A stretch of DNA of 64,000 nucleotides. It comes from Somniosus microcephalus. Its lineage: Eukaryota. The translations under genes were made by a program, and so were the position numbers. Below the pieces are notes generated by a model that made no database searches, was not told the DNA's origin, and saw only the letters and a program-made list of their open reading frames with translations. The DNA is taken from assembly GCA_052327205.1 (NCBI GenBank), contig CM126213.1:107880001-107944000 (forward strand). Reading direction: 5' to 3'. Of this stretch, positions 1-41,660 are shown piece by piece (within the stretch, counting starts at the first letter, position 1; every line of letters starts with the position of its first letter).

Positions 1-420
1 AGTATTGTGAAGTGAGTGCGTGGCAGGGGATTCCTGGAGTGATGTCAAATCCTGCCCCATCCCTCCTCCACAATGGCCGAAATTTTAATCTGTAAGCGGG
101 ACAGGGGTTGGAAAGCAGTCGGGATACCCAAGAGAACTGGTTTCCCGCAGGCCCTGCCGAATTTAACGGCAGCACCTGATTAGCATTTCAAAATTCTGTT
201 TCCCACCCACAGCCACGGATGGAGAGGCTAGCTGTGGGCGGGTAGGCCTGCGACACTGGAGGAGGGAGGGAGAGATCGGGTGGGTGGTGGTCCGGGGGCT
301 GGAGGATTGGGGCCGAAGGAGCATCATGGGGGGTAAGTGTGGAGGATCGGGGCCGGCCAGAGGAGCATCGGGGCTGGAGTGGGGAGCCTGGGAGGCCGAT
401 CGGTGGCCTGGTGGGGGGAT

Positions 421-595
421 CAGAGGCCTCATGGGTGAGGGGGGAAGAACTGGAGGCCTCAGCAGGGGGGGATAGGAGAGCTCGTGGACCGGGGGAGTGG
501 GGGGGTTCAGAGGCCTCATGGGTGAGGGGGGAAGAACTGGAGGCCTCGGCAGGGGAGGATAGGAGACCTCATGGACCGGGGGGTGGTCGGAGGTC
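421..595. repeat. G-rich tandem repeat, 87-bp period, about 2 copies, within a GC-rich degenerate element (about 75-890)
   Basis: CAGAGGCCTCATGGGTGAGGGGGGAAGAACTGGAGGCCTC starts at 421 and 508; the 29-aa repeat is visible in the spurious ORF 163..834. Confidence 0.85.
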
Positions 596-1149
596 TCAGC
601 GGGATCAGAGGCCTTGGCGGGGGCAGGGGTGTCCGATCGCAGTGGGTGGTTGAGGCAGGGGCTCTGGATCCAGCAGTTAAGTGTAAAAGCACTTACCTCC
701 TGGATCCGGCAGTCCTCGCCTTGTTTTAGCTGGCGGGTTCCCTGAGAAACCCGACCGGCCGGAGTTGAATTTGTAATGGTGGTAAATCTGAGGCACGCCG
801 GCCTCATTATAATATTTATAAATGGCCAACCCAATTCCTGGGAGCGGGTTGGCTGCCCGCTCCCTGTCCTGCCTTCTGTAGAAAAATCCTACAAAATGCG
901 TTTTTCTTTTTTAATTGACCCTTTTCTGTGAAGAAAAATGATCAAAAATCCCATTAGGTAAATATAGCGAGTTCCAGGGGTCAAACAGATAACTTCTGTC
1001 CTTGCACTCCTACTCACTGGCAGACGATGAATGTACACCCCATCATACAAAGGCTCAACCAAGAGACATATTTATTTAACATTAAACAGGTAAATGAGCA
1101 ATATTTGGTACAATAGTACATTTGCAATCTTACAAACTTTGTACATAAT

Positions 1150-2400
1150 CTACATCCTAGGGTACTTAAGGAAGTGGCCCTAGAAATAGTAGATGCATTG
1201 CTGGTCATCTTCCAAAATTCTATAGACTCTGGAACAGTTCCCATGGATTGAAGGGTAGCTAATGTAACCACACTATTTAAAAAAAGGTGGTCGAGAGAAA
1301 ACAGGGAATTATAGACCGGTAAGCCTGACATCGGTAGTGGGGAAAATGCTAGAGTCCATTATAAAAGATGTAATAGCAGAGCACTTGGAAAACAGTGACA
1401 GGATCAGACAAAGTCAACATGGATTTGCAAAAGGTAAATCGTGCTTGACTAATCTACTGGAATTTTTTGAGGATGTAACTGGTAGAATAAATAAGGGAGA
1501 ACCAGTGGATGTGGTGTATTTGGACTTTCAGAAGGCTTTCGATAAGGTCCCGCATAAGAGATTAGCGTGTAAAGTTAAAGCACATGGGACTGGGGGTAAG
1601 GTACTGACTTGGATAGAGAACTGGTTGGCAGACAGGAAGCAAAGAGTTGGAATAAACGGGTCTTTTTCCAAGTGGCAGGCAGTGACTAGTGGGGTACGCA
1701 GGGATCGGTGCTAGGACCCCTGCAATTCACAATATATATTAATGATCTAGACGAGGGAACTAGATGTAATATCTCCAAGTTTGCAGACGACACAAAGCGT
1801 GTGTGTTGTGAGGACGATGCCGAGAAACTCCAGTATGATTTGGACAGGTTGGGTGATTGGGTAGATGCATGGCAGATGCAGTATAATGTGGATAAATGCG
1901 AGGTTATCCACTTTGGTGGCAAAAACAGGAAGGCAGATTAATATCTGAATGGCAATAGATTGGGAGAAGGGGAAGTGTAACGAGACCTGGGTGTCCTTGT
2001 GCACCAGTCGCTGAAGGTAAGCATGCAGGTGCAGCAGGCGGTTAAGAAGGCAAATGGTATGTTGGCCTTCATAGCGAGAGGATTCGAGTACAGGAGCAAG
2101 GATGTCTTGCTGCAGTTGTACAGGGCCTTTTAGCCATTTAGGACTGAGATGAGGAGGAATTTCTTCACCCAGAGAGTGGTGAACCTGTGGAATTCTCTAC
2201 CACAGAAGGCAGTTGAGGCCAATTCATTAAATATATTCAAGAAGGAGTTAGATATATTTCTTAAGGCTAAAGGGATCAAGGGATATGGGGAGAAAGCAGG
2301 GACAGGGTACTGAATTTGGATGATCAGCCATGATCTCATTGAATGGCAGAGCAGGCTCGAGGGGCCGAATGGCCGACTCCTGCTCCTATCTTCTATGTTT
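1150..2400 (+). mobile_element. CR1 LINE fragment (RT and 3' end), 5'-truncated with an internal deletion near 2130
   Basis: ORFs 1337..1714 (QHGF..GKSCLTNLLEFF, YLDFQKAFDKVPH) and 1708..1941 (SKFADDTK); CR1 3' tail ..CTCCTGCTCCTATCTTCTATGTTT; frameshifts and stops. Confidence 0.95.
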
Positions 2401-2789
2401 ACTATTCTTCTCAATGTCAAAACAACTGAGATGCTTTCTCTGCACTATTGGTCAAAATAAAACTAATCTTTGAAACACACTTGCTTCTTATACGGTGAAA
2501 TGTAACCAAAGAGCCCCTGATTTAGCTTAGTGCCTCTGCTGGCTTCAGACTTACCACTGGCTGGCATAAAGTCTGCATTAAATATATCACACACATTTCT
2601 TTGATATACTAAAGCAAATGACACAAGGCAAAAGTATCTCTCATAACTACATTAACAGCTATTCACAGGTTGTCAATGCAAAGGATGTGTGTCTACACAA
2701 AGTGTACCATTTGTGCCAGACCAAAATGTCATGGTGACTAAATTCAATACAATATTACAAAGTGTCAATAAATACTTCTAAGGAATAAT

Positions 2790-3255
2790 AAAAAGAAAAG
2801 ACTTGCATTTATATTGTGCGTTTCACGACCTCAGACTTCCCAATGCGCTTTACAGCTAATAAAGTAGTTTTGACGTCTAGTCACTGTTGCAATGTAGGAA
2901 ACACGGCAGCCAATTTGCGCACAGCAAGCTACCACAAACTGCAATGTGATAATGACCAGATAATCTGTTTTTGTTATGTTGATGAAGGATAAATATTGGC
3001 CAGGGCACCGGGGATAACTCCCCTGCTCGTCTTCAAAATAGTGCCATGGGATCTTTTACGTTCACCTGAGAGAGCAGACGGGGTCTTGGTTTAACGTCTC
3101 ATCCAAAAGACGGCACCTCCGACAGTGAAGCACTCCCTCAGCACTGCACTGGAGTGTCAGCTTAGAATTTTGTGCTCAAGCCTCTGGAGTGGGACTTGTA
3201 CCCACAACCTTCTGACTCAGAGGCGAGAATCCTGCCCATTGAACCACAGACACTG
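2790..3255 (-). mobile_element. Deu-SINE (SacSINE1-like) with tRNA-derived head and L2-type tail
   Basis: Same family as 45475-45905 and 59850-60240; tail reads ..TATAAATGCAAGTCTTT on the - strand; family name from recall. Confidence 0.8.
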
Positions 3256-3470
3256 ATATGAAGTGATTCATTTGCATCCCAGACTGTACAGTATTTCATG
3301 TAGCTCGCAGGTAGCAGTAACCAGTATTATCCTGTGCACTACAGCTACCAAGGAAAAAAATCAGTAAATAATCCAACATGTAATCTACATGTCACAGTAA
3401 CATTTGTTGAAGAAAGCTAGTAAAATCTGGATTGTTACAATTGGGTAGGAGGAGAGGAGGTTTCAACTTC

Positions 3471-3506
3471 TTTGATTGCATTATCAATATTGATAATGCA
3501 ATCAAA
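3471..3506. repeat. Perfect 36-bp spacerless palindrome
   Basis: TTTGATTGCATTATCAAT|ATTGATAATGCAATCAAA. Confidence 0.95.
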
Positions 3507-3615
3507 AAGAACTTTTCAAAATGTATAATAAGTAATCATTGTGTGATGCGATTATTTCCACCAATTATTCACTAGGGAGGACATATGAAACATGCCCGTC
3601 CCAAGTAGTGGTAAT

Positions 3616-3734
3616 CAATGTTCCCCCTAATTTTTTGTGCGCGCGGCCCATTCACAGTTTCGCGCAAGCGCAAAATTTAACCTTAAAAAAGCCAGCAGAG
3701 AGCTGCATGGCCACGCAGCTTAGAGGGAACATTA
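3616..3734. mobile_element. Small hAT-like MITE
   Basis: TIR CAATGTTCCC..GGGAACATTA; 8-bp flanks GTGGTAAT/GTGGTAAC; a related copy lies at 6627-6780. Confidence 0.75.
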
Positions 3735-3827
3735 GTGGTAACCTGAGTAGAATTCATGACTTCAATGTAAATCTGATGGAAATCTTAGACCGGCTATAAG
3801 AGATCTAAACAAACAAATCCCCTTTTT

Positions 3828-3930
3828 TCCAGTTCTGATGAAAGGTCTTCAACCTGAAACGTTAACTCTGTTTCTCTCTCCACGGATGCTGCCCTGGCCT
3901 GCTGAGTTTTTCCAGCATTTTCTGTTGTTG
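3828..3930 (+). mobile_element. Penelope-like terminal (pLTR) fragment with a minimal hammerhead motif
   Basis: CTGATGA(3835-3841)-AAGGTCTTCAACCT-GAAAC-GTTAAC, then ..CTGCTGAGTTTTTCCAGCATTTTCTG shared with the Penelope end at 49630-49760. Confidence 0.75.
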
Positions 3931-4319
3931 TTCCTCCATCACCATCCCTGGGTATGTCCTGTTCCACTGGCACGAGAGGTGGCGGCACTGTGATACACAG
4001 CTGGGAATCCTCAACATTGACTCCAGACCCCATGAAGTCTCGTGGCATCAGATCAAACATGGGCAAGGAAACCTCCTGCTGATTACCACCGCTCTCCCTC
4101 AGCTGATGAATCAGTTCTACTCCATGTTGAACACCACTTGAAGAAGCACTGAGGGCAGCAAGGCCATAGAATGTATTCTGGGTGGGGGACTTCAATATTG
4201 ATCACCAAGAGTGCTTTGGTAGCACCACTAGTGACTGAGCTGGCCAAGTCCTGAAGGACATTGCTGCCAGACTGGGCCTGCAGCAGGTGGTGAGGGAACC
4301 AACAAGAGGAAAAAACCTA

Positions 4320-4546
4320 AATAACAACAGAAAATGCTGGAAAAACTCAGCAGGTCAGGCAACATCCGTGGAGAGAAATTTGAGTTGACGTTTCGGGTCG
4401 AACCCTTCTTCAAAACTGGAAAGAAAAGAAAATAGATCGTCAACTCAAATTTCTCTCCACGGATGTTGCCTGACCTGCTGAGTTTTTCCAGCATTTTCTG
4501 TTGTTATTTCGGATTTCCAACATCTGCAGTATTTTGCTATCGTACT
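4320..4546. mobile_element. Fold-back Penelope pLTR insertion (71-bp perfect inverted repeat) with 15-bp TSD
   Basis: Arms 4320-4390 and 4438-4508; TSD AGAGGAAAAAACCTA at 4305-4319 and 4547-4561. Confidence 0.9.
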
Positions 4547-4936
4547 AGAGGAAAAAACCTACTTGACCGCGTCCTCAAGAATCTACCTGTCGCAGGTGCA
4601 TCTGTCCATGACAGTATTGGTAGGAGTCACCACCGCATAATCCTTGTGGAGATCACGTCCCGTCTTGACACTGAGGACACCCTCCATCGTGTTGTGTGGC
4701 ACTCCCGCCGTGCTAAATGGGATAGATTCAGAACAGATCTAGCAGCTCAAAATTGGGAATCCACGAGGTGCTGTGGGCCATCGCCAGCAGCAGAATTCTA
4801 TTCCACCGCAATCTAACCTCATGGCCCGGCATTTTCGTAGAATCATAGAAATTTATGGCACAGAAGGAGGCCATTTGGCCAAGAACAAGCTAGACAGCCT
4901 AATCCCACTTTCCAGCTCTTGGTCCATAGCCTTGTA

Positions 4937-5258
4937 CAGGAAACTTTGGTTTATCCGGAGGCTGTATGTCCGGAATACTCGATCTAACGGCAAAAATCAG
5001 GAGCCGTTTTCTATAAGTTTTTTTACTTCTCGTTCTTTTTTTTTTCCCAGTCAGGCACTGCAAGGTCTGTAGCGATAGCAACAGCTTCAGCTAGAGACGC
5101 TTGCAGCTGCAGCCGACTCTTTAGAAGCTGTTGCTAAGCAAGTGTTTGTTGTCAGATACGGAGATGAAAACCTCCGTATGCTTCAGCATTAACTTTGTAT
5201 GTCCGGCAGTTTTGATAGATCGGCAACACGCCGGTCCCGGATATCACAAAGTTTCCTG
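4937..5258. mobile_element. Tc1/mariner-type (pogo/Tigger-like) MITE inside a CR1 3' fragment, itself inside the LINE
   Basis: TIR CAGGAAACTTTG..CAAAGTTTCCTG with TA on both sides; an inverted homolog lies at 31049-31574. Confidence 0.9.
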
Positions 5259-6626
5259 TAGGTTACAGCACTTCAAGCGCATATTCAAGTACTTTTTAAA
5301 TATCAGGCAGTGAGTTCCAAATTCCATATTCCTCACTCTACCATTAACATCAAGTCAGAGGATCAATCCTGGTTCAAGGAGGAAGCGCATACCAGGAGCA
5401 GCACCTGGCGTACTTAAAAATCAGGTGCCAACCTGGTGAAGCTACAACACAGGACTACATGCATGCTAAACAGCGGAAGCAACATGCTAGAGACAGAGCT
5501 AAGCGATCCCACAACCAAAGCTCTGCAATCCTGCCACATCCAGTCATGAATGGTGGTGGACAATTAATCAACTAATGGCAGGCGGAGGCTCCATGAACAC
5601 CCGCGGAGTCCACCACATGAGTGAAAAAGACATGGCTGAAGAATTTGCAACCTTCTTCAGCCAGAAGTGTTGAGTGGATAATCCATCTTGGCCTCCTCCT
5701 GAGGTCCCCACCATCACAGAAGCCAGTCTTTAGCCAATTTGATTCACACCACATGATTTTGAGAAACGGCTAAACGCATTGGATACAGCAAAGGCACTGA
5801 GCCCCGAAAACATCCCGGCTCTAATGCTGAAGAGTTGTGGTCCAGAACCAGCCGCGCCTGTAGCCAAACTGTTCCAGTACAGCTACAACACTGGCATCTA
5901 CCCGACAAAGTGGAAAATTGCCCAGGTATGTCCTGTCTCCTGTCCACAAAAAGCAGGACAAGTCCAATCCAGCCAATGACCACCCCATCAGTCCACTCTC
6001 AATCATCAGCAAAGTGATGGAAGGTATTGTTTACAGTGCTATCAAGCAGCACTTAATCACCAAAAACCTGTTCACCAATGCTCAGTTTGGGTTCTGCCAG
6101 GATCTCTCCACTCCAGACCTCATTACAGCCTTGGTCGAAACATGGACAAAAGAGCTGAATTCTAGAGCTGAGGTGAGAGTGACTTCCCATGACATCAAGG
6201 CAGCATTTGACAAAGTGTGGCATAAAGGATTCCTAGTAAAATTGAAGTCAATGGGAATGAGGGGAAAAACTCTGCAGTGGCTGGTGTCATATCTAGCACA
6301 ATGGAAGATGGTTATGGTTGTTGGAGGCCAATCATCTCAGCCCTAGGACATCACTGCAGCAGTTCCTCAGGGCAGCGTCCTAGACCCAACCATCTTCAGC
6401 TGCTTCAACAATGACCTTTTCTTTATCATAAGGTCAGAACTGGGGATGTTCGCTGATGAATGCAGTGTTCAGTTCCATTCGCAACTCCTCAGATAATGAA
6501 GCAGTCCGTGCCCGTATGCAGCAAGACCTGGACAACATTCAGGCTTGGGCTGATAAGTGGCAAGTAACATTCACTCCACACAAGTGCCAAGCAATGATCA
6601 TCTCCAACAAGAGAAAGTCTAACCGC

Positions 6627-6780
6627 CAATGTTCCTTGTAATTTTTTTTGGTGCATGGGCCTTTTAATTGGCTACGCCACCGATTCAATTTCTCATGCAT
6701 GCATGGTTATTTCAATTGTAAAGCCGTTCAGCGGCTTGCGCAGGACCTCCAAACTGCCGCGCAGCTCAACAGGAACATTC
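6627..6780. mobile_element. hAT-like MITE related to 3616-3734, interrupting the LINE RT
   Basis: CAATGTTCC..GGAACATTC termini; the LINE sequence TCTAACC..CCTCCCCTTGACATTC resumes after it (compare the uninterrupted copy near 48110). Confidence 0.75.
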
Positions 6781-7689
6781 CCTCCCCTTGACATTCAACG
6801 GCATCAAATCCCCCACCATCAACATCCTAGGGATCACCATTGACCAGAAACTTAACTGGACCAGCCACATAAATACTGTGGCAACAAGAGCAGGTCAGAG
6901 GCTGGGTATTCTGTGGCGAGTGTCTCACCTCCTGACTCCCCAAAGCCTTTCCACCATCTACAAGGCACAAGTAAGGAGTGTGATGGAATAGTCTCCACTT
7001 GCCTGGATGAGTGCAGCTCCAACAACACTCAAGAAGCTCAACACCATCCAGGACAAAGCAGCCCTCTTGAATGGCACCCCATCCACCACCTTAAATATTC
7101 ATCCGTCCACCACTGACGCACTGTCTCTGCAGTGTGTACCATCTACAAGATGCACTGCAGCAGCTTGCCAAGACTTCTTCGACAGCGCCTCCCAAACCCG
7201 TGACCTCTACCGCCTAGAAGGACAAGGGCAGCAGGCACATGGGAACACCACCACCTGCAAGTTCCCTTCCAAGTCACACATCATCCTGAATTGGAAATAT
7301 ATCGCCGATCCTTCAGCATCGCTAGGGCAAAATTCTGGAAGTCCCTCTCTAACAGCACTGTGGGAGTACCTTCACCTCGGACTGCAGCGGTTCAAGAAGG
7401 CGGCTCACCATCACCTTCTCGAGAGCAATTAGGGATGGGCAATAAATGCTGGCCTTGCCAGCGACGCTCACATCCCGTGAATGAATAAAATAATTTATGA
7501 GGCCACCTTTTACAAATGTTTTTAGTTCAAGAGAAACAGAGTTCATGAGGGTGACATGGAAGCATGCCAGGCCTATTTTTGTGTTGGACAAGGAATAGTT
7601 ATCCATGTCTTTATTTGTTTGGATTCATTTCTGTTATTCCAGGGATAAGAATTTCCATATTTTTGTTTTTGTCTTGGCAAATTGGAGTT

Positions 7690-9400
7690 TACGAACATAC
7701 GAGCAATGACAGACAGAAAAAGACCCTCTGGTCTATCTAGCCTGTCTCTCACAATTGTGATATCACAATATATACACTCCCCACCCCATGTGAGTGAGAG
7801 GCAGAAAACCAGATAAAAACCCAACCCACCTGAGGGGGGGTGGAATTCTGGGAAAGTCCCCTCTGACCCCGTAGGCACTCGAAACTCATCCAGAAGGACA
7901 CTGTGGCCCTGATAATACAATGCAATACCTACCTTTTTGTAAGAGGTGATCTCTATCCACCCCAGCCAGCAACAAGTCCAGCTCTCGCTTGAAGGAATTC
8001 AGCGAATCGGCATCTACCGCACAAGCTGGCAGCCTGTTCCAGAGATCCACTATTTGCTCGGAAAAGAACCACCTCCTGACATCGAACCTAGATCTGGCAT
8101 TGTACAACTTAAAATTGTGACCCTGGCCCTCCATAACCTACTTCATTGGAACAAACTGTCAACTCAAACACAATCTATTCCCATCATCCTCTTACACACC
8201 TCAATCAGATCACCTCTGTGCTTCTCTGAAGTGCAGAGTCCCAGCTCTTTTAGCTTATCTTGATAACTTTCCAAAGCCTCAATATCACCCACCATGTGAG
8301 GAGACCAAAACTGGACACAGTATTCCAACTGAGGTCTGACCAAAGTCTTGTACGAAACAAAATAGTATAGTTAGTTGTCCTGTAAATGTACCCTTTTCAT
8401 CAAGATCCACCTGAAGCAAATTTGCTCATCATGCCCTCAATAGCTACATCTAGATCATTAATAAAAATAGTGAAGAACAATGGTCCCAAAACTGATCCCT
8501 GCAGGACACCACTGGTGACCGGTCTCCAAACAGATCCAAATCCATCGATAACTACTTTCTGCCGAAGGCCTTCTAGCCAGTTCTCAATCTAGCTCAATAC
8601 TGTATATTACCACTAATTCCAGAGGCTTCGATCTTGTAGAGAAGCATCTTGCGTGGCACCTTGTTAGAAGCTTTTTGGAAATCTAAGTAGGCAATGTCTA
8701 CTGGGCTTCCCTCATCCAGCACCTGGGTGACTTCTTCAAAAAATATAATCAAATTTGTAAGAAATGACTTTTTTTTGAAGCGATGTTGGGTGTCCCTAAT
8801 ATGTCCCTCTCCAGCCAGGTAATCCTATATTGCATCCCTAATGATTTCCGCAAGAATCTTTCCTATTACTGATGCCAGACTAATGGGCCTATAGTTACCT
8901 GGGTCCATCTTGTCTCTTTTTTTTAAAGAGGGGGACTACATTAGCCTCTTTCTAGTCTACGGAACCATCCCAGAGTACAATGAGCTATTAAAAATACAGG
9001 CAAGGCGCTTGCACAGCACGTGTCCTATCTCCTTGAGGACCTTCTGTTGGATATTGTCTGACCCAGCTGCTCTATCTATTTTCAAGTTCTTAATTCTATC
9101 TAAAACAATGTGTTTATGTTAAAATTACTAATTTTATTATCAACATCATCATTAAATTCTAACAGTTGAGCATCATCTTCAAGAGTGAAGACTGATGCAA
9201 AGTACTCATTTAATATTTCCGCCATACCCAGTGAGACCTTCGTAACCTGTCCTTAAGCATCCTTCAAAGGCCCAATACAGTCTTTAACAGTTTTTTGGCT
9301 CTTCACATGACTGAAAAAGCTTTTCCCATTCCTTCCACAATTGTCTACAGTCCTCTTTTCCATTATCCTTTTTGCTGATCTAATAGCAGCCTTTTTTTTT
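7690..9400 (-). mobile_element. CR1 LINE fragment (subfamily with a long 3' UTR)
   Basis: ORF 7886..8134 (GHNFKL..RFDVRRWFFS..LWNRLP..NSFKRELD); RT remnants YLDFQKA and [10 protein letters not shown] on the - strand. Confidence 0.9.
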
Positions 9401-10399
9401 TAGTTGTTCCTTGTATTTAGCTGTTTAGTTGAGTATTAAATGTCTTTAGATTTGTAGAAATTTTTTTGTTTACATCTTGTGTGATATATGCTTTTAATAA
9501 AGGGTTAGTAAGTAAGTAAACCAATAACTTGCTAGATACATCCTGTGAAGGTTCATATATACAAGTCAAGATCTTCCAAACAAGTGGGCATGAGCAATTT
9601 GGAAAAGAGCCAGAGATACATCTCTGTCCATTTAGTGCATCAAGCACATTTCTGGTGGGGGATTTTGTGAGTACAGGAAGCTCTGACCTGAAATAAACGA
9701 AAACTTCATTTCAGTATGTTAATACTGTCCTGATAACTGATTTAGATGTTCATGCAATTCCTTTAAGTTCATATGTGCCTAATCGTGATTCACCTGCCTG
9801 TTTTGTTTTCTTTTTGGGTTCAATAAAGACTCATTTCTGAAAGAGAATGTTGTTTAATCTAAAGTCTTGTTCAAGACTTTCTACAGCTTTTTACAGAACA
9901 CACTATGCTGTGATGCATCTAGAATGAAACTGAAAGTAAAACTCCTCTGGACTGCTTGTCTCTCACATGACCTCTGCTGGTCAGGCACAAGTAATCAAAA
10001 ACACAGACAAATATGCTGTAAGGCATAAGTAATCAAACACAGACAAATATCATCACTATTTGCTGATATCATTACACTGCCCTCCCATTTAAAACAAGTG
10101 TCCACCGTTGCGAGGAACTGGGCTGTTTACAGTAGTTAATTTAAAGAGTCCTACAAAAAGATTCTCCGCACAGTTTTCACTTCACTTCTCAACCATTTCA
10201 CTGGGAGTTTTTTTTTGCTGCCGTCACTTAGGTGTTCAGGTGCCTTCGTGGCAATTGTGTTACAGCTATTTTGTCCCAACTGCTGTAACAGTGAAGTGTT
10301 TTTTTTTCATGGGAATTCCCCTAAATCTATGCATTTTGGTTGAAGTTGAGAGGGGCCAACAGGGTTGTAAGGCAGGTCAGGCTGCGACAAAGGCATGCT

Positions 10400-10875
10400 G
10401 TATCCAACCACTGGTACCCTCACACTATTGCAGACAGACCTATAACTATCAGAGGACCAATGCTTGCACAGACTGCGATTGATAAGGAGCCTGTGAATGG
10501 GTTGTGTCATGTGCTGCAAAGTAACCTGCAGCTAAGCCCGTACAAGGACATCATACTGCCAGTGGCTTTGAAAGTTAAAGCAGCCCTCTCTGCGAATCAT
10601 TCAAGGGTGCACTGATGACATGACCCACATTAATCAATCCACAGTACAGAGATGTATAAAGGCAGCTGCCCTATTTTCTCAAACAACCAATTTTATCTCC
10701 TTCCCCGTAGACTGTTGGCAGCAACATGAGATGGTTGTGCAATTTTATCAATATCTGAAGCTCTGTTAGTTACAGATGGTACACTTGTCCTTAATGCTCC
10801 ACTGCACAAAGCCACTAACTATATGATTTGGAAAAAATTTCACTCTGAATGTTCATTCATTTGCAGCAACAGGAC
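10400..10875 (+). pseudogene. Degenerate PIF/Harbinger (HARBI1-like) DDE transposase fragment
   Basis: Hand translation across frameshifts: VNGLCHVLQSNLQ..LPVALKVKAAL / TDDMTHINQSTVQRCIKAAALFSQTTNFISFP..QFYQ / VTDGTLVLNAP..YMIWKKFHS-LNV, colinear with the Harbinger motifs ISQS..RC, FI.FP, DGTHV..AP and NRKG.HSLN. Confidence 0.75.
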
Positions 10876-10890
10876 TAGATTACACAAATC

Positions 10891-11240
10891 GGCACGGTGG
10901 CATAGTGGTTAGCACTGTTGCCTCACAGCGCCAGGGACCCGGGTTCGAATCCGGCCTCGGGTGACTGTCTGTGTGGAGTTTGCACATTCTCCCTGTGTTT
11001 GCGTGGGTTTTCTCCGGGTGCTCCGGTTTCCTCCCACAGTCCAAAGATGTGCGGGTTAGGTTGATTGGCTATGATAAATTGACCCTTAGTGTTAGGGGGA
11101 TTAAATACGTGGGGTTACGGGGATAGGGTGGGATATGTGTTGGTGTAGGGGTTACGGGGATCGGGTGGGATATGTGTCAGTGCAGGCTCGATGGGCCAAA
11201 ATGGCCTCTATCTGCACTGTGGGGTTTCTGTGATTCTGTG
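10891..11240 (+). mobile_element. V-SINE (HE1-like), tRNA-derived
   Basis: A-box TGGCATAGTGG, B-box GGTTCGAATCC, V-domain TGTGTGGAGTTTGCACATTCTCCC, tail CTGTGATTCTGTG; AAATC on both flanks. Confidence 0.9.
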
Positions 11241-13769
11241 AAATCAATGAACTTGCGCTCAGTCAGAAAATGTAAGCTCCTGTGTCTTATATTGCCTCAC
11301 AGGTATACACATTCCTTTTTTGAGAGAGGGCTTTTTTGCTGCTGATTCCTATTAATGGCTCAGGCTTACTGTATACCATGAATTTAGTGGAACCTTTGCA
11401 GTTCTAGTTTAGTTTGTAAAAACTGGTCACACATTATTGTTGAAATGGGCTGCCAACAGTGTTTCTAATCTCCAAGATCAACTTGTTAGTATTTTGTTTG
11501 TCCCTGGAACTTGATATTTGTGACGTCATTCTGGTAAATCTTTTTTCATATAGATCTGGAAAATTCAGTAGTGATCTATCTCAATTGATCAGTGAGTAAA
11601 AGATGAAGTGCATTTTGTTTCTGGGTGCATGGAGGTCTATCATTAGAGTGTGTTGCTTTTATGACTGTCCTGTTACCTGCAGATCGTGCATATCTGGGAG
11701 TGGAAATGCAAGTATGAATGTGCAAATAAAATTGCATTAATTTCACTTTAGATGAAGGCCGTGTTGTCCCTGCTTTTGTAATTATTAATGCAAATCAAGA
11801 TGACAGTTCAACTTATTAATTATTGATTGAGCCATATGATATCATGTTGTACATCCGAACAGAGCTTGTACCTAGGAAAGTACTAGAGAAAATGGAGGAG
11901 CCTCAGAAGCCAGAAAATGAAGTCCATGTATGGCCCCATTTTATGCTACACCGAGGGGGCAAGAAAATAATTTTTTAAACTTATCTGTTCTCTTAGATCA
12001 TGAACATGCTTGCCCCAAATGTTTCAATGAGTTGTATTTAATGTTCTGACAGCAACTTTTTATTTCCCTTTTCCAAAAACACAGGTAGTAGAAAACAAAA
12101 TCCTTATCCATATAGGAATTTCTACATGTAGTGGTCAACTGAAAATGTCTGTTTTCTTGCTGCATAGTGGTGCGGGTATTGGATGTGCCAGACTTGAGTT
12201 GGCAAACTCAGGATATTTGTGAGGGCTTTATCATACAAGAGCTGACCAAACATGTACTTTGAGTTGAGTTTAAGGGCACTGTTCTCAGTGGATATGGAAT
12301 AAAACATGCAATGAATCAGACCTGTACATTTTAATAGTAATCTCTTTGTTGTTTAATTTTATGTAACAGTCCAAGTCTTGCATGAAAACTATTGTTGGCA
12401 GCACAGGCAACAACTGGCTAGAGACTCTTTTGAAGAGCCGGCACAGGCTGAATGGGCCGACTGGTCTCCTTCAGTGCTGTATCACGCTATGATTCTAGAA
12501 CCACTGGTAATGGCATTCCATAAGAATAAAGAACAGCCTATCACGCTGGATCTGCTATTGTGGGAACATACTTGGAGAATAGAATCTTTTATTCTGGAGT
12601 TGATATTTGACTTGGTTTTCATAACACCTTGTTTGAAATTGATGGTGATGCATTTTGAAGTGTTTGTAGCCAAGTTGAAAGAAATTTGGATTTATTTTGT
12701 TTAAATCTCTGAACATGATTTTAAAACTTTGAGTAAAGATACTTCTCATGCCATTATAAAATTTCATTAATGTGACTAGCTTTTCCAGCATTACTTTTCC
12801 TAATCCACAATTGGTTTATTGACAGTTTGTTGGTTGGATCAGTAACATTTCCATTGGTGCCCTTTAACTGTAGGACAATTATGCAATTGGAAACCTGGAC
12901 CTGTGAGGACCTGCATGGTGGATACCTTCTTGGCATCAGGAATATCTGCGCAAATCCACATTCTCGCGAGGAGGGAAAGACAATCATGTTTAAGTAGTCA
13001 CACGTTAGCCAATATGAATGAGTTTTGAGAAGCACTAAAAATGGTCATGAAAGTTAATTTTTAAACTATTATTAGTTTTTCAGTTGTATTACAAGCATTT
13101 TTAATGGTTCTAAGTTCACATAAGTGGTTGCTGGCAGACCTTTGTATTTTCGGTTTGATTGTTGATGCACCTCCTAAGCAGACACTGCTTCTCTCGGAAG
13201 AAGTATTAGTACTGTGGTTCGTTATTAACTGGTGGGTGCAACTACACTTTTAAATGGCTGCATGAATCTGCAGAGCACTCATCTGCACCATTTTTAGAAC
13301 TTTTTTAACTTGAAACTGGTAGGAAACAACAGTACAAAAAGGAGAACATAATTCTTCTATCACAATATTGAGGGGAAATGGTTTTAACAGATCCTGGTGA
13401 CTCGTGGCGTAACCTCATCAGTGAAATCCAATGATCATTAAGGCTGTTGACTGTTCACTGCAGCATGTAGTACATTGTCACAAATTTTCCTATGAAAGGT
13501 CTGTCAGAGATGTTTAAACATTGATCATTGGAAGTTTGCACTCTGTATTTGGGAATGGAGCTTAAAGTCCTGTTTGAAGGCACCTATCTGTTCTTGAAGG
13601 CATTTTGAATGACAGCTACTTTGTGAACATTCAAAAGCTTTCTTTTTAAATTGGCAGTAAATTATTTAAATAGCATGTAATTAATTTATAAACTGGCAAA
13701 GGATACACTGCTGTTTTTTTAATTTGATATGCAGCATTAAATTATTGACTCAATAGTCCATTTCAACAG

Positions 13770-14045
13770 AACTACATATAGAAGGTAGGTGGATATTAGA
13801 GGATGTGTCTCCCAGCCATCCTGGTCTCCTGGAACTTAGTTGATTGCCTTTGGGGATCAAAGAGGAATTTCCCAGTATTTTCCTCAATTGGCCTACGTTT
13901 TTTCTGTCCCTCCCAGGAGATTGTAGAGGTTGGGGAGTTGTGTGGGGGTGCGGATGGGGGTCATGGTGTGCAGAAGTTACACCGTGACCATATAGGACAG
14001 GCTTGATGGAACAGCTGATCTTTCCCTGTCCTTTATTGCGTTTCA
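13770..14045 (+). mobile_element. Old CR1 3'-end fragment (same long-UTR type as 7690-7930)
   Basis: Similar to the reverse complement of 7690-7930 (GGAATTTCCCAG.., GGACAGGCTTGATGGAACAGCTGATCTTT). Confidence 0.55.
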
Positions 14046-14134
14046 TGGACTAAATAAGACTTTTTTTGTCAGGTTTGTAAAGCCTGTTTGGCTCAGTGGG
14101 GTATGTTTCAAACTTCTTGTATTTTTTCCCCCAG

Positions 14135-14481
14135 CTCCCCGTGTGCGTCGTGCACATTCATCTGTGCCACTTACACCTCAGCCGAAGAAAGCAAAGAAAC
14201 ACTCGCTGGAGGACATAATGGATGGTATGATGGAGAAGTTCATCCGCTATAGTGAAGCCGCAGATGAGAAATTTCTCCGTTACATGGAGGCGTCCGAGGA
14301 ACGGTTTGCTCGTCTTGAGCAACTCCGTATGGAAATGGAGGAAAGGATGAGACAAAGCGACAGAGAACATGAAGCCCGTGTTCTATTCATGCTGGGACAG
14401 ATGATGGGCCATAATATGGCTGACTTTCCTTCCACGTCTTCAGCTGCTGAGGGTGAAATAACTGAAAGGAAAGTGTTTTAG
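14135..14481 (+). CDS. Terminal coding exon of a probable Myb/SANT-like (trihelix-type) DNA-binding protein; coiled-coil C-terminus; upstream exons not found in the window
   Basis: Strong acceptor TTTTTTCCCCCAG|CT (phase 1); open frame ..PRVRRAH..PKKAKK..LEDIMDGMMEKF..EERFARLEQLRMEMEERMRQSDREHEARVLFMLGQMM..KVF-TAG; NLS-like basic patch plus heptad E/R/M pattern; followed by repeat-poor AT-rich sequence. Confidence 0.75.
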
Positions 14482-16690
14482 GTTACGGTTAAATTCACTG
14501 TTCAACTTATTCACTTAAAAATGAAGTTGTATCTTTGTAGCGCATTTTTATTTTATATACAGTATGTTTTCTGATGCAACTGCATACAGGTTCATAACCA
14601 AAAGATTTTTTAATTGTTGGTAAGCTTGCATGTTGAGTGGAAAACAATTTTGTTTGGTAAAACTATTGAGAGCAATAGCTCAAAAGTAAACCAGCCATCT
14701 CTTTGTAGACTAATTTCTGGGGGGTGTGTTGAGTGCAAAAATTGACTTCACTTTTAAGCCAACATGAAGTCAGGAAGAAATAATTGTAGCAATGCAAAGA
14801 TAGTACAAGAGTTTCATTTTATGACTTTATTTAGGACTTAAAAATAGGTTACCTATAAAGTCAATCACTAATGTTCTTTCATATAACCCTAGGTAAGACA
14901 ATACATCAAATGATCCAATGTGATCTTTTCAACCTATATGAAGGAAAATCTTGCATCAAGTCCACTGCCCTGCCTTCATGTTTTCCTTTTATTTCACAGC
15001 ACTATTGGAAGTGGTTTGCTGTAGCATAACCAGTCTTTCATTCTATTGTTTCCCTCGTAGCAGTTACTTTTAGTATACAATGCACTTAGCAGTTCTTCAA
15101 TAAATGGAAATCTTACAACACTATGTAATAGGGCAGTGTTCCATAGTGAGAAATATAGCATATAGTTATTTTGCATAACTGAGTCTTGACACCATGAATT
15201 GTGAGTGAGTGAATTTTTTTTAAAATAAATGTATTAAAGGAATTGTCTGATTTGTTGGCATTCCAGTTTTAGCAAATGGATTCAACATGGCCTTGTCGAG
15301 ACCTTCCCCCTTGCTGTGCTGAAGGGCATGTGCTCAGACCTGAATGCTCACAAACCATCATTACCTTAACGGAGGATCCAGCCTTCTGTTACCTACAGGG
15401 CAATAGCTATTAGTTTCTATTTTTAAGAAATGGGATTCTTAAAATTTTTAAATATCACTTTTACAGAGTCAGCTTACTTTGTTTTAAATTTTTAGATGAT
15501 GTAAGAAATTCTGAATAATTAGTTTTAATTGATGCTGTAGCAGCCACAAATAATGATGTGCATTTGATTTGAGATGCATGTATTTCTACATTGGCCATTA
15601 TGAAATAAATGTGGCTAAATGTTGCTATAAAAAGGAGTTAATAATTCCCAGGGACTTGTAATGAAAGATTTAAATCTTTTACCCCAAAAAAACAAATACA
15701 AGTGCTTGTAAATGTGTTTCTTGACAAGAGAGCTGACTCGAAAACTGTTGGTAAAACAAAGTTACAGCTGAGCTGTTCTATCCAAATTGAGCCACTCTTA
15801 ATAAGAAACCTAAAAGCCTTAAACATGATTGGTAGATGGTGAGTTCTCATACAGACATCATTGTAAATGACTCTGTTAACGTTGGGTTGTTAATGAGAGG
15901 TGCTAGTTAATTAACTATTTTCTTTTAATTCACTATGGATATTACTAGATTAAGGTGCTGAATACAATTAAACTGAGAAATGTTATGTTAACTGGTTATT
16001 GGGGTAGGGTGGACATGACATGGTTTGTGTTTGCTTACCAACCCCTAGTGGCCAAAGCATGCTTCAAGTCTTGGAAGACGCAAATGTTAAAGATGCTTAA
16101 TACTGGTAGTTACTAATAACTTGTGTGGAAAAGCAAGGGCATATTTTAATACTGAGGTTCAGTTTCCAAGTTGTGTGGCTTGTTCACTTTTTAGTTACTG
16201 TAATTTCATGACAATAATCTTCAGTCTGTATACTTAATTTGTGTCCTTCCCTATGTAGATATTTTCTACCCAAAGGCACTCTGTTAAATCACAGAACATG
16301 TAAACCGAAGAAAAGCCTTTTTTAATATCTTTAACCATACAAATGGAAGATTAACCCTTTCTCATTGAGGAATTTCTATTTTTAGTGGAACGCTGCAGCT
16401 ACTATTTTGTCCACTTAAGATGGAAAAGGGTTTAATAGAACCGATTCAGATATCTGAATTACAAATATAATCCAGTTGTGGTTTGATTTTTTTTTTAAAA
16501 ACAAGTCCTTGTGAGTGCACAATTCATTTAAGCTTTGAACAACTGAATTGGATGACCTATCCCACAAACTGTGAATATACCTACTCGTCCCACAGTGGGA
16601 GAGGGATCATTTCTCTTTCACTTTGAAGTATTTTTACAATTTTATACTGTAGAATTGACTGTTACTGAAGTAAAATAAAAACCTAATGTT
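14482..16690 (+). other. Putative 3' UTR of the Myb/SANT-like gene with candidate poly(A) signals
   Basis: AT-rich and apparently free of transposons; AATAAA at 15224-15229 and 16674-16679. Confidence 0.45.
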
Positions 16691-17372
16691 GAAATTTGGT
16701 TTCACAGTGTGATCTCGATGTCCATTTTCAGAATGTAGAGATCATGCAAAGGGTCAAGGTCCAACCAAGAGAAAGGAATAACGGGAAAGAAAAAAAACAT
16801 GTTTTTCTCGTATGTGACTTTATCATGGTTAAGTGAAAGAGGATGCAGTGCAGGTATTGTGGGAGTAGAGAAATAAAGGATTTGGCAGAGCAACAGCTCC
16901 AATTCCACATATGTAAGGGACAGGAGGTCTGAGATATTATGAGCAAAATGTTTCCTTGTTTCTCTGTGACTTAACATTTCTTTGCTTGTATATTCCTTGG
17001 GTCTGATTGTTTTTCCTGTCTTCATTGGGTTCACCCTGCAGCACAGAGAATATTACAACTGGGAAGTGGCCTGATTCCAAATTCCTGCCATTGGTACTGT
17101 TGAGAGGTTCCCAGGAAATTGGCACGGGTTGACTCTACCTTCTAGGCATCCCGACTGAGATAGTTATCTCAGTGTCAAGCAATTGTAAAAGACAATCTCT
17201 GTCGAAGTACTCTGTGTGCTAATGACCTGTGCTACAGAAAAGGTGCCCCACCAAGCTATGCACTTGTTTCATATTCTTTATTTATATTTGCCTCGTTTTT
17301 GTTTCTCTGTTTTCCTCCACTTGAGTTCCTCTTGTTCTGTTGTTCCTTTCCTATTATTTATCCTCTCCAATA

Positions 17373-17816
17373 CAGGTAGACTATCCTTTATCCGAAAACC
17401 TCGGGACCAGCCGAGTTTCGGATAAAGGAGAATTTCGGAAGGTGGGTCGGCGGGGGGGTCGTGCGCACGACTTACGCTGACGCTCAGCGTAAGTCAGTCG
17501 GGGCCGGCGGGGTCCGCGGTTGTCGGGGGCTGGCGGTTGTCGGGGCCGGCAGGGGGGGTCGGCGGCTGGCGGGGCCGGCGGGGGGGGTCGCGGTTGTCGG
17601 GGCCGGCGGGGTCCGCGGGGGGGGGGGGGTCGGCGGTTGTCGGGGCCGGCGGGGTGTCGTGCGCACGACTTACCCTTTATCCGAACTTCCGAAACCGGAA
17701 CCCTCTAAAAACCGACGGTTTTTTCGTTCGTACGCACGACTTACGCTGAACGAAAAAACCTTCGGTTTTTAGAGGGTTTCGGTTTTCGGAAGTCCGGATA
17801 AAGGGTAGTCTACCTG
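17373..17816. mobile_element. Young CpG-rich Tc1/mariner-type (pogo/Tigger-like) MITE with nested palindromes
   Basis: 22-bp TIR CAGGTAGACTATCCTTTATCCG / CGGATAAAGGGTAGTCTACCTG (1 mismatch); TA at 17371-72 and 17817-18; internal GC-rich TCGGGGCCGGCGGGGG repeats. Confidence 0.92.
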
Positions 17817-36892: not shown

Positions 36893-36982
36893 ATGGCGAC
36901 TCGTGCGTTGATGCAGCAATGTCTTTCGGCCCGGCTGCAGGTGAAGCCGGCGGAGGAGGGTGCGGCCGCTGAATGCATTCAG
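36893..36982 (+). CDS. DTD2: D-aminoacyl-tRNA deacylase 2 (ATD), exon 1
   Basis: MATRALMQQCLSARLQVKPAEEGAAAECIQ matches the DTD2 N-terminus (ARALLQQCLHARLQ); donor CAG|GTATTC, phase 0. Confidence 0.9.
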
Positions 36983-37294
36983 GTATTCGACAGCCATACT
37001 GGCCATTGCTTTTCCGTTGAATTAAGTCACTGTTGACAGACCAGCCTGGCGTGCTGGCAACCAGCTCAGGGTTTGGGTTTGGACTTGGACTTGGACTTGG
37101 ATCGGGGGCGGGGCCGGGACTCTGGTCCTGTGAAATGAGAGAAAGCTTGAAATTCCTCCCCATCCTCTCTACCCCTCCCTCCCAGAGGTAAATGAATAGT
37201 GTTTTACCCTGCATTTCACCCAATCTCTTCAACTTTATTTTGCTGGAAGAAATCTTTTATATTATAATTTTACATCGATTTCCCTGTTTTACAG

Positions 37295-37364
37295 ATCCAA
37301 AGAGGGACATTGATCTACGTCTGCTTTTGTAAAGGTGCAACTGTAGACATGATTCCTAAAATGG
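37295..37364 (+). CDS. DTD2: DTD2 exon 2
   Basis: Acceptor TTTTACAG|ATC; IQRGTLIYVCFCKGATVDMIPKM; donor G|GTAAGT; 70 nt, phase compatible with exons 1 and 3. Confidence 0.95.
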
Positions 37365-37550
37365 GTAAGTATACAGTATATTAATGATGTACATTCATAC
37401 TCGCCATCATTTCATGCACCTTCTGGAACTCCTAATGCAGGTACAATCGCATTTTAAATAATCTCTCAAACAATTTTCCAAACACAACTTGTATTTACAT
37501 AACCCCTTTAATGTAGGAAAACATCCCAAAACACTTAACAGGCACATAAT

Positions 37551-38798
37551 GGCCCGGAACTTGTGGTCAGCGGCGAAGCAAAAGGTGCTCGCCGCTGGCT
37601 CTGAAGAAAGCTGCCCACAAAGATCTTGCGATCTCTGTGGTGAAAAGTTTGCCTTTTTTGACGTGCAAATCATTTAAGTGGAATAGTGGGAATTCCATAG
37701 CGTGAGCTGTTGTGACATCAACAAGCTGTCTAAACAGCCAATCACAATGCAGAATTCTCAAGACAGGGAACCAGGAAGTAAAGAAGTTGCTTTTATTCAG
37801 ACTTTTAAAAATGTTACAAAACAAAGATTGGGGCTCTCATGTGGAATAGGTAAAGCTGAAATAAATATGAACAAACTTTAAAAAAATATATTTTTTTAAT
37901 GTTTCTTAAACTGTAATTTTCATCATCATTAAAATGGATAAATTTGACATTCCACAAAATTAAAATTAGTTTTTCAGGGCCATAATGTTTGTTTAGCAGT
38001 CAATTTGCTGTTAAAACCCCAGTTACACCTAATCGAACAAGGCCTAACTTTTAATGGGGTATTTAACATTGATATTACCACAGAAAAGCTCAAATTTTCA
38101 TCAGTTTCACTAATTTCCCTGATTACACTGATTGCCGGCTATGGGGGTGTATGTGTTGGGGGTGGGGTCGTGTGGGCACAGCAGAGCCAGTGTTGAAGCA
38201 GTGAATGACAACGCAACTTCAGGATTTCCTCGTTAGGATGCGCTTGCGCTACATCCTGAAGTTGTGGTCAGTTTCAAAGGGGTAATAACAGTGAATGCTG
38301 CTGGGATGGCAGGAATGATGTATGAGGAGAGATTGTGTCGATTGGGCTTATACTCACTGGAGTTTAGACGATTGAGAGGGGATCTCATCGAAACCTATAA
38401 AATTCTGTCAGGCCTGGACAGACTAGATGCTGGAAGGATGTTCCCGATGGTCGGGGAGTCCAGAACCAGGGGTCATAGTCTAAGGATAAGGGGTAGGCCA
38501 TTTAGGACTGAAATGAGGAGGAATTTCTTCACCCAGAGAGTGGTGAACCTGTGGAATTCTCTGCCACAGAGGGCGGTGGAGGCCAGTTCATTAAATATAT
38601 TCAAGAAGGAGTTGGATATATTTCTTAAGGCTAAAGGGATCAAGGGATATGGGGAGAAGGCAGGGACAGGGTACTGAATTTGGATGATCAGCCATGATCT
38701 CATTGAATGGCGGAGCAGGCTCGAAGGGCCGAATGGCCTACTCCTGCTCCTATCTTCTATGTTTCTATGCTGTTATTACACACTGCAAATTCTGGGCC
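37551..38798. mobile_element. PIF/Harbinger-like non-autonomous element in DTD2 intron 2, inserted in an L2 tail and containing a CR1 fragment
   Basis: Imperfect TIR GGCCCGGAACTTG / CAAATTCTGGGCC; 3-bp TSD AAT; L2 sequence continues on both sides. Confidence 0.7.
38300..38768 (+). mobile_element. CR1 3' fragment (young subfamily)
   Basis: ORF 38264..38677 (YEERLCRLGLYSLEFRR..RRNFFTQRVVNLWNSLP) plus tail. Confidence 0.95.
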
Positions 38799-39785
38799 AA
38801 TATGACAAAAATTGGCACCGAGCCAAAGGAGATATTGGGACAGGTGATTAAAAGCTTGGTCAAAGAAATAAGTTTTTTGAAAGAGGAGGTAGAGGTGAAG
38901 AGATGTAGCAGTATCAGGATGGAATTCCATAGCTTAGAGCCTAGTGGCTGAAGGCATGGCTGCCAATGGTCGGGGGAAGGAAGTGGGAAAATGCACAACA
39001 GGCCTGAGTTGGAGGAACGCAGAGTTCTTGGAGGGTTGTAAGGCTGGAGTTTTGGATGAGCTCATGTTTATGGAGGGTGGAAGATGAGAGGCTGGCTAGG
39101 AGAGCATTGTGGAGGGGTCAAGAGAGATGGTGAGGTAGAACTGGGTATCGTCAATGCATCTGACCATGTTTTTGGATGATGTCAAGGGCAGCATATAGAT
39201 AGGAAGTAGGAGGGGGGCTAAGGATAGATCCTTGGGGGGACTCCAGAGTTAACGGTGCGGGGATGAGAAGCGATGCCATGCAGGAGATTCTCTGGCTACG
39301 ATGGGAGAGGCAAGAGTGGAACCAGGCATGGGAAATGGAGGAGAGGCGTAGGAAGCAGAAGGTGTGGTCAGCCATGTCTAAGGCTGCATAGAAGTCGAGA
39401 TGGACGTGGAGGGATAGTGCCTCACAGTCACAGTCACTTCGATTAGGATTGTTTCAGTGCTGTAGCAGGGGCAAAAACTTGACTGAACAAGTTCAAACAT
39501 GGAATTGCAAAAAAGATGGTTACTGATTTGGAAGGCAACAACATGTTCAAGGCCTTTGGAGAGGAAAGGAAGGTTGTAGTTGAGGTGGTAGTTTGCAAGG
39601 TCAGAGGGAGGAGAGGGAACCATTAACAATATCAGCTAGCATGGGGGCCAGGAAGGGAAGTTTGGCGGTCAGTAGTTTAGTGGGAATAGGGCCAAGAGAG
39701 CAGAAGGTGGGTCTTGTGTACACAATGAACTCTGAGCAGGCATGAGGGGAGATACGAGAGAAACTATAGAAAGATACGAGTGAAC
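38799..39785 (-). mobile_element. L2 LINE remnants
   Basis: LDPIPT-like, NY..NLPFLSK.LE, PQGSILSP and LWNS motifs on the - strand; tail at 37485-37550. Confidence 0.8.
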
Positions 39786-40179
39786 ACATTTTTATTCATT
39801 ACAAATGGAGCAAGTGGAGGAATTCCCTTTTTATACAAATATCCCTGTAGATTTCAATTTCACTTTTCTGTACATTTCTGACAGACCTCATTCCCTCCAG
39901 AAGAAAATTACCTTTTTGATTTTTTTTAAAATCTCCAATTTATCACTGGTGTTATTTAGCTGTGTTAACTGTACTTGAATGTTAAAGTAATAGAAAATGG
40001 TTTCCTGCATTACAACAGTGACTACACTTCAAAAAGTACTTCATTGGCTGTAAAGCGCTTTGAGACATCTGGTGGTCGTGAAAGTCGCTATATAAATACA
40101 AGTCTTTCTTTCAAGTGCTGAAAATTTCTACTTTTTGACAAAAGATGACAATATAATTATGGATGAGGATGGTGATTCA

Positions 40180-41110
40180 ATCTATCTTAATTTATCCATC
40201 CAGAACAATCCCATAGTCCTTCCATTGCTGCATCTAATTCTTTCTTAAATAAATCATGGGTTTTCACCTCTATTGCCTACTTTATTTAGAAGTTAATTCT
40301 AAGTGTCGATCACTTTGCCTGAAGAAGTACTTGCTGATAGTCTTAACTTTACCTGTTACTAGTTTGAACTTGTATCCCACTGTCCAATTTGTCACTACTT
40401 AAATTGAAGTAGTATTGCTGATTTTACGATTTCTAATCCCGTAACTATTTTATATATCTCTTACAAGACCACCTTCCTCACTCCTCCTATCCAGGTTGAA
40501 AAGCCCAGGTTTCTCCAGCCTTTCCTAATAACAGACCCCTGACACCAGCAATCAGTCTCATGCCTCCTCTGTGTACTGCCTGCAGTGCCCAAATGACTCC
40601 CCTGTTTCTTCTCAACCAGAATTGGACATAATAGTCGAGGTACGGTCTGATCAGAGCACTCTACATTTTGATCATGATCTCCTCTGACTTGTATTGAACT
40701 GTTTTGGCTATGTAGTTCAATGTTCTGTTAGCTTTGCTAATTGTTGCTCTGCAATGGTTGGACATGTGTGCCAAGGCTACTTGGACTTTTGGATCTCTTT
40801 CAACCTAATCCTTCGCTATTTCAACACAGTTCGTGGAGTACAAACTTTATACTTGCCTGCATTAAATTGCATCTGATCATTGTTTTGCTCACTCACACAT
40901 TTTGTCCAATTTCTGCTATAATTACTGAGCTACCTCATTCAATTTACCCCCCCCCCCCCCCCCCCCCCCCCGTTTGATATCGTCTGAAAGGTTATCAATT
41001 TGCATTGAGTTTCTGAATCCAGGTTAATTATGTAAATTAGAAACAATATTCTGTGTCAGTTTGGTCACCCCTTTTGAATATAGGTGCCACATTAGTCTAT
41101 TTCCAGTATT
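40180..41110 (-). mobile_element. Old CR1 fragment containing a C25 tract (40947-40971)
   Basis: RPYLDYYVQFW- and MQFNA-like remnants on the - strand. Confidence 0.65.
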
Positions 41111-41660
41111 GAGTACAACAAACAGAAACATTCTTGTTACGTTGGGATTGCTAACGGTTTGGGAACAAGTTGTCGATCTCCCCTTTTGGTCACCAAAGCA
41201 GTGGGATAAATAAAAACTTGGGGGAGGGGAAGGAAGAGGAACAAAACAAAATGAAGTGTTTTTTTTTGCCACTGGTGACTAATAGCTCACAATGATACTA
41301 TTGATTCTGACACTGGATGTTTGAAATGGAAGTATTCAATTCTCCTGAGCACAAAATGAGTTGTATTGAAAGGAATGGGACAAGAATAGCCTTTAGGAAA
41401 TATGTTTGCGAACAGATTAAAAGTTGAAATTTATAAATCTTGAAAATGTTGATGTTTCAGGCTTGCTAAGAAATTGCAACTTGGGAACAATACAATATTT
41501 AATAGATTTAAGTATAAATAGAAATAGGATACCTTTTTATATGTTTCAATTTTATTCTGATAGATTTGGTGAAATGTATTCCAGTTAAGCAGTTTGTTAG
41601 GCTATGAAATGTAACGGGATCAGTGTTAAGTTTTTGTTACAATTTTTTCCCCTGCTGCAG

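Follow-up and report, generated by a model that had tools for sequence, protein, structure and literature searches.

A conserved Myb/SANT gene of cartilaginous fishes, likely derived from a Harbinger helper, and the transposase relic, likely of another Harbinger lineage, in its intron

Several vertebrate genes, NAIF1 and MSANTD1-4, derive from the Myb-like open reading frames (ORFs) of Harbinger transposons (PMC9392472), and in Harbinger3_DR the helper protein encoded by such a frame binds a subterminal DNA motif as well as the transposase (PMC9710019). The transposase and Myb trees of fish Harbingers are largely congruent (PMC9179366). Here we describe an unnamed Myb/SANT gene of the shark Somniosus microcephalus, the last coding exon of which lies in a stretch of 64,000 nucleotides (hereafter the window) from its 6.45-Gb genome (assembly GCA_052327205.1, contig CM126213.1, here C12, positions 107880001-107944000, forward strand; positions without a contig prefix are window positions). 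It is a host gene of two coding exons and 291 residues. In the account that we consider likely, it goes back to a Harbinger helper domesticated more than 400 million years ago, and a transposase relic in its intron was inserted independently and stems from a different lineage of Harbingers.

Like NAIF1 and MSANTD1-4, the gene is single-copy, conserved and spliced, encodes a single trihelix domain of the Myb/SANT kind but lacks a transposase, and is at least as old as the split between sharks and chimaeras. It differs from MSANTD2, which has 559 amino acids and four exons (PMC9392472), in having 291 amino acids and two coding exons; judged by length and exon count it is not MSANTD2, although some databases give it that name. 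Two classes of Myb domain are distinguished below, Myb4-type (PF13837, Myb_DNA-bind_4) and Myb5-type (PF13873, Myb_DNA-bind_5). By eye, the helpers of Harbinger-3_OL, -1_ON, -5_DR, -2_BF and -3_BF have the same domain order as the gene (PMC9179366, supplement); these helpers and that of Harbinger-1_DR share with it a Myb4-type domain, an acidic linker, a basic patch and a helical end. The named helpers belong to mobile elements present in many copies and have a transposase as partner, whereas the gene is fixed at a single locus and is divided by a 33-kb intron. The partner transposases of these helpers, again by eye, have N-terminal motifs that differ from those of the relic.

The first-pass annotation, made from the letters of the window, had described a cleanly spliced, stop-free exon with a basic patch and a coiled coil, and had remarked that no Myb domain was visible in the window. 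Both statements hold. The exon is an open frame from 14135 to 14478 with a stop codon at 14479-14481, and a pyrimidine tract and an AG precede 14135. The Myb exon (residues 1-178) is located at C12:107860920-107861453, 19 kb upstream of the window, and matches PF13837 at 69.5 bits. Phase-1 splicing joins the two exons into an 876-base frame of 291 amino acids across an intron of 32,686 bases, which begins at C12:107861449. This junction was recovered from transcript-like runs of relatives of the window species (X1 and X3, the RNA status of which was guessed by software). The X1 contig (4,680 bases) begins exactly at 14135, and the unaligned letters at this end agree with the last letters of the Myb exon at 29 of 30 positions. 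The exon that this junction, which the annotation had proposed to follow, joins to 14135 carries Myb_DNA-bind_4; the X3 contig likewise begins at 14135. In the structure model of the protein, a confident helical domain (residues ~11-108) is followed by a disordered linker and a single helix (residues 197-272). A homodimer prediction for residues 185-280 returned a score of 0.01, which is uninformative either way. In several sharks there are gene models in which a different last exon replaces the one with the helix, and in one model the linker is shortened.

The best matches of the last exon are PF13837 proteins of the basking shark (97%) and of a ray (94%). The protein falls into a cluster of 21 members, and among the 15 listed all are from sharks, rays or a chimaera and most are 291 amino acids long. 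Identity of the spliced protein amounts to 284/291 residues in Heptranchias, 264-274/291 in three rays and 272/290 in Callorhinchus, where the last exon alone agrees at 110 of 114 positions. Among the listed differences, all five that fall in the coding exon and stop codon are silent. The annotation had allowed for a multi-copy exon; in the genome, one locus matches at 96-97% and the next matches reach at most 50%, and the exon alone as query finds one further match, at 32%. From these comparisons, the gene is an intact, single-locus gene under purifying selection across sharks, rays and chimaera. Strong matches to PF13837 occur at 6 loci of the genome, each of them found once. Besides the gene itself, one of them is a second intact two-exon gene (C15:74367486-74375232) with a Myb4 exon, a phase-1 intron, a basic patch and a long helix, which is identical to the gene described here at 66 of 173 conserved columns. 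The four remaining strong Myb4 loci are on C15, C3, C34 and C26.

The origin of the gene is indicated by its relatives. It can be aligned across the Myb domain, linker, basic patch and helix with numerous and varied proteins of invertebrates and vertebrates, and judging from this likeness and from that to the named helpers the gene likely descends from a Harbinger Myb helper. It might instead be an old cellular transcription factor of the trihelix type without transposon ancestry, the Harbinger likeness reflecting a shared fold and nothing else. The sole solved relatives would fit such an origin, since the family profile matches only structures of GT-1, a plant trihelix transcription factor (PDB 2ebi, 2jmw; E 2.6e-11), at 24% identity, a fold analogy that is silent on the sequence bound. 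The absence of a transposase domain from all 40 long relatives scanned for a Myb-transposase fusion (of 150 listed) and a single metagenome locus that is too short to show a transposase point the same way. Against this, the likeness spans the whole layout, both in diverse invertebrate proteins and in named Harbinger helpers, and vertebrates are known to have captured such helpers repeatedly (PMC9392472). We therefore regard a purely cellular origin as improbable and descent from a Harbinger helper as the better explanation. The gene is kept in the elephant shark, in which Harbingers went undetected, and other cartilaginous fishes have been suggested for a Harbinger check (PMC9179366). In the genome analysed here Harbingers are very abundant, and one young family alone has 150 or more copies that are close to intact. 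The ESM Atlas gave only PF13837 clusters with automatic names, and no description of the gene was found in literature searches, the scope of which excluded subscription journals, Repbase reports and bioRxiv supplements.

The annotation had also reported a frameshifted Harbinger transposase upstream of the exon, and this was confirmed, with its start moved from 10400 to about 10083. Frameshift-aware alignment with L042, an intact transposase of the same genome and one of 150 scored PF13359 matches, covers residues 60-216 with 46/146 identities and 3 frameshifts; the score of 110 compares with a mean of 31.6 (sd 3.9, maximum 47) for 200 shuffles. The pieces are spread over three reading frames at ~10400-10880, and the remnant of the ORF, which starts at ~10309, carries at least three frameshifts. 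A tblastn comparison with L082, which has PF13359 at 125 bits, gave E 9e-10. Homology to the DDE_Tnp_4 transposases is thus above chance through L042 and L082, and a Pfam scan of three readings of the relic gave no match because the relic stops ~40 residues into DDE_Tnp_4. It terminates shortly past the region of the first catalytic aspartate; the second D, the E and all 3' parts are missing. A DNA profile of the relic family stretches the match to 10083-10889; it was built from 15 loci chosen for their likeness to the relic, so that its score is not independent and it was used for extent only.

At its 3' end the relic adjoins a short interspersed nuclear element (SINE), by resemblance a putative V-SINE, which had been thought to cut the transposase. 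The SINE marks the end of the relic and does not split the gene in two: its excision in silico adds only 4 bases of homology, and when the 3' half of the transposase was sought in the 1,060 bases behind it, the score was 33 against a mean of 32 for 100 shuffles. The relic is therefore a 5' fragment without most of the catalytic domain. As a whole element it is incomplete in other respects as well. The catalytic triad is broken off, the alignment ending at residue 216; two profiles detected no Myb frame in the gene's intron; and no convincing terminal inverted repeats were found around the relic or the exon. The relic family is like Harbinger3_DR-type elements, the source group of NAIF1 and, as we take it, of HARBI1, in its N-terminal transposase motifs and its PF13873-type partner. 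Unlike these elements, the relic itself is a frameshifted fragment that lacks the remainder of the catalytic domain, the partner and the terminal repeats, and it is not a domesticated HARBI1-like gene.

Relatives of the relic are found throughout the genome, at least 17 others by DNA (66-84% local identity) and 76 others by protein, nearly all of them broken. The relic is 72% identical to the leave-one-out consensus of its family (Kimura two-parameter distance, K2P, ~0.36), its sister copies 52-75%. By these sequence measures it belongs to an old, dispersed family, and it is likely to be an ordinary intronic fossil that is removed with the intron by splicing and has no predicted role. An unrelated insertion could later have been co-opted as a regulatory element or an alternative exon of the gene, which would suit a relic that is old yet still recognisable, as would the gene models of several species with alternative last exons from within the intron. 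However, the relic is no nearer to the family consensus than its sister copies are, the listed alternative ends do not read as transposase, and the spliced X1 contig skips the relic. Co-option thus seems very improbable.

The relic lies between the two coding exons of the gene and on the same strand, about 29 kb from the Myb exon and 3.2 kb before the last exon. The first-pass annotation had suggested that one element lost its transposase here while its Myb partner became a host gene, with an unrelated intronic insertion as the alternative. The conserved, single-locus Myb host gene of this proposal, probably Harbinger-derived, has been retained; the common element is not supported, the relic being nested in the gene and likely of another lineage, and the unrelated insertion is the better reading. 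The consensus of the relic family is 53-56% identical to the transposases of L082 and L087, and in the L087 element a PF13873 Myb helper stands tail-to-tail with the transposase. None of the 15 relic-family loci has a Myb4-type frame and five have Myb5-type pieces. When the lineages of the two ORFs were compared, as had been proposed, they differed on this evidence, an outcome that the annotation had named as speaking against its proposal: the relic family is close to Myb5-partnered elements and the gene is Myb4-type. By eye, the transposases that partner gene-like helpers belong to another subgroup, and the motifs of the relic match the Harbinger-3_DR group (PMC9179366, supplement). In the Myb tree, which like the other Myb trees of this analysis contains unnamed relatives only and no named Harbinger helpers, 14 of the 15 Myb5-type shark rows form a branch of their own (Shimodaira-Hasegawa-like approximate likelihood ratio test, SH-aLRT, 98), the exception being a very long branch; this tree was a quick one, from which 2 of 113 rows were dropped because their matches were too short. 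At the 24 weaker PF13837 loci that were inspected, the Myb frames are those of transposons and of PF13873 type.

The frequency and layout of such relics were determined on 60 evenly spaced 10-kb stretches of the genome (598 kb). There were 11 transposase relics in 9 of the 60 stretches, i.e. one per 54 kb, so that a neighbourhood of relic and exon such as this one is expected; the chance of at least one relic in a 32.7-kb intron is 45%. The numbers of first-look candidates (96,623 for PF13359 and 93,085 for PF13873) are not copy numbers. Eight of the sampled relics are accompanied by a Myb5 frame on the other strand, which in seven cases lies downstream (at a distance of 2.1-2.6 kb in six and of 7.2 kb in the seventh) and in one case upstream; the other three lack a Myb5 frame of their own. 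One stretch additionally has same-strand Myb pieces 3.9 kb away. Among young copies, an antisense helper was found in 3 of 25 by a narrow motif search of short flanks. The intron after the Myb domain is in phase 0 in the elements and in phase 1, ~70 residues later, in the gene.

Had one Harbinger landed here, its transposase dying, its Myb helper becoming the host gene and the intron growing around the relic, the shared strand, the short distance to the last exon and the great age of the relic would be accounted for, as would a same-strand relic so near a given exon, which is uncommon (~3%); co-domesticated pairs are known in insects and plants (PMC9710019, PMC9392472). Yet the transposase would then lie within an intron of the very helper that it came with, at a distance of 29 kb from the Myb exon, whereas shark elements carry the two genes on opposite strands. 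The Myb classes (PF13837 versus PF13873) and the intron phases are at odds with a single element, as are the well-supported Myb5-type branch and the lack of terminal repeats around relic or exon. We consider this course of events extremely improbable. From intron position, lineage, layout and chance frequency, an origin of relic and gene from one element is therefore not supported, and on these sequence features the two would belong to differing Harbinger lineages.

Several points weigh against our account of the locus. The link between the gene and the named Harbingers was drawn by eye only, these elements being part of neither the alignments nor the trees, and no transposase was found in the searches beside any Myb4-type relative, the lone metagenome locus (1.9 kb) being too short. 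The best Foldseek match is GT-1, but it is weak (E 0.055), and a raw RNA run under the label of the window species (X23, ~24% read) had no reads on the exon. As for the relic, the partner assigned to its family consists of decayed, antisense, downstream Myb5 remnants at 2 of 15 loci, together with relatedness to Myb5-partnered elements, and four elements with swapped partners have been reported (PMC9179366). Its age alone cannot set it apart from the gene, since the relic is old. Finally, the chance that a relic on the same strand falls no more than 3.7 kb from a particular exon is about 3%, a figure that applies to a single exon, whereas the annotation chose among many.

A further question is the age of the gene, which leaves the reading of the relic unaffected. 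A search that started from a turtle match revealed an unnamed gene with a Myb4 domain and a helix in birds, turtle, sturgeon, bonefish, killifish and elephant (e.g., KAK2524147.1, RXN01871.1, KAI1885337.1 and XP_049723842.1). Some gene models fuse it to NAXD/CARKD, namely in pigeons, in a manakin, in sturgeon and in several killifish (P0040, P0053, P0061, P0108, P0131). This NAXD-linked gene is like the shark gene over the Myb domain and the helix, and in both the intron appears just before the basic patch; it differs in its neighbours, several models being joined to NAXD. The shark gene might be its ortholog or an early duplicate, stemming from one capture in the jawed-vertebrate ancestor. 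In keeping with this, the NAXD-linked gene is the most similar relative of the shark gene (79/167 conserved columns versus 69/172 for the best row outside; E 3e-48), its best match in the shark genome is in turn the Myb/SANT gene, and the 160 kb around shark NAXD, which a PF01256 search missed and a protein search found, contain no Myb4 and helix frame. The two form sister groups in two trees (SH-aLRT 83-84), and the gene at the C15 locus is likewise built of two such exons. On the other hand, the shark gene is flanked by a ParA/Mrp-family gene, which we take to be NUBPL, and by a deacylase gene instead of NAXD; a third tree places an unnamed pair (P0160/P0203) nearer to the shark gene, an arrangement not rejected by the approximately unbiased (AU) test (p 0.74); and independent captures from one Harbinger subgroup would yield similar proteins. 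A single capture is thus possible, if not quite probable. A tentative and rather doubtful extension is that the two genes represent one overlooked Harbinger domestication of the jawed-vertebrate ancestor, missed by human-centred surveys, which stayed next to the NUBPL promoter in shark and chimaera, the two proteins being 93% identical, and moved or was captured beside NAXD in bony vertebrates. If so, read-through beside NAXD could join a DNA-binding domain to a metabolite-repair enzyme. In unnamed proteins, Myb4 domains are also joined to aminotransferase, PAICS-type and TINF2-type domains (P0140, P0171, P0175, P0149, P0096, P0085, P0165, P0102), which suggests repeated capture or read-through beside housekeeping genes. 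NUBPL, NAXD and shark are not mentioned in the text of PMC9392472.

With regard to function, the protein might be a nuclear regulator. Its N-terminal trihelix domain is predicted to bind DNA and its basic patch to direct import into the nucleus; the long helix at the C-terminus may bind protein partners, as a transposon helper does for its transposase. By analogy with the Harbinger3_DR helper, NAIF1 and plant genes, a nuclear, partner-recruiting role is proposed, and a DNA-binding regulatory role seems reasonably probable. Transcription probably starts in a CpG island that the gene and NUBPL, arranged head-to-head, have in common, and this offers a possible route of gene capture. The gene would add to the Harbinger-derived regulators an unnamed, very strongly conserved member from cartilaginous fishes, one that some databases mislabel as MSANTD2. 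The features mapped in the window are given in Table 1.

Table 1. Features of the window, with positions, strand and the evidence for each
Feature	Position	Strand	Evidence
3' portion of the only intron in the coding region of the gene, with pieces of long interspersed nuclear elements (LINEs), SINEs and the relic	1..14134	+	LINE-like frames, spliced gene model
Relic: degraded 5' fragment of a gene for a Harbinger transposase and some 5' non-coding sequence	10083..10890	+	frameshift-aware alignment, family profile
SINE flanked by a 5-base duplication; its insertion site is 4 bases short of the relic's end	10891..11245 (about)	+	profile extent, excision
Last coding exon, encoding residues 177-291 with the basic patch and a single long helix rich in E/R/M, and the stop codon	14135..14481	+	homology, splice junction
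3' untranslated region (UTR), at least 2.8 kb	14482..17300 (at least)	+	X1 and X3 contigs continue past the exon
Exons of a D-aminoacyl-tRNA deacylase gene	36900-41983	+	PF02580 on 41630-41983
CpG island at 53-54 kb and coding exon near 55990-56230	53400-56400	+	inspection

The neighbouring genes were mapped in the Somniosus microcephalus genome only. Exons of the ParA/Mrp-family gene are located upstream of the Myb/SANT gene on the minus strand, and what is likely its first exon, an assignment that we likewise presume, lies ~570 bases from the ATG of the Myb/SANT gene, both within one CpG island (region C12:107860200-107860920); a head-to-head, two-way promoter shared by the two genes is thus probable. 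Downstream, the deacylase gene is presumably DTD2, and the exon beyond the second CpG island reads like the start of HEATR5A, to which we assign it provisionally. An Rfam scan of the window gave no matches, and no search with a SINE library was made; close copies of the SINE that adjoins the relic are found at two other loci. Just past the mapped 3' UTR, a GC-rich insert with long terminal inverted repeats (17374-17801) resembles a miniature DNA transposon.

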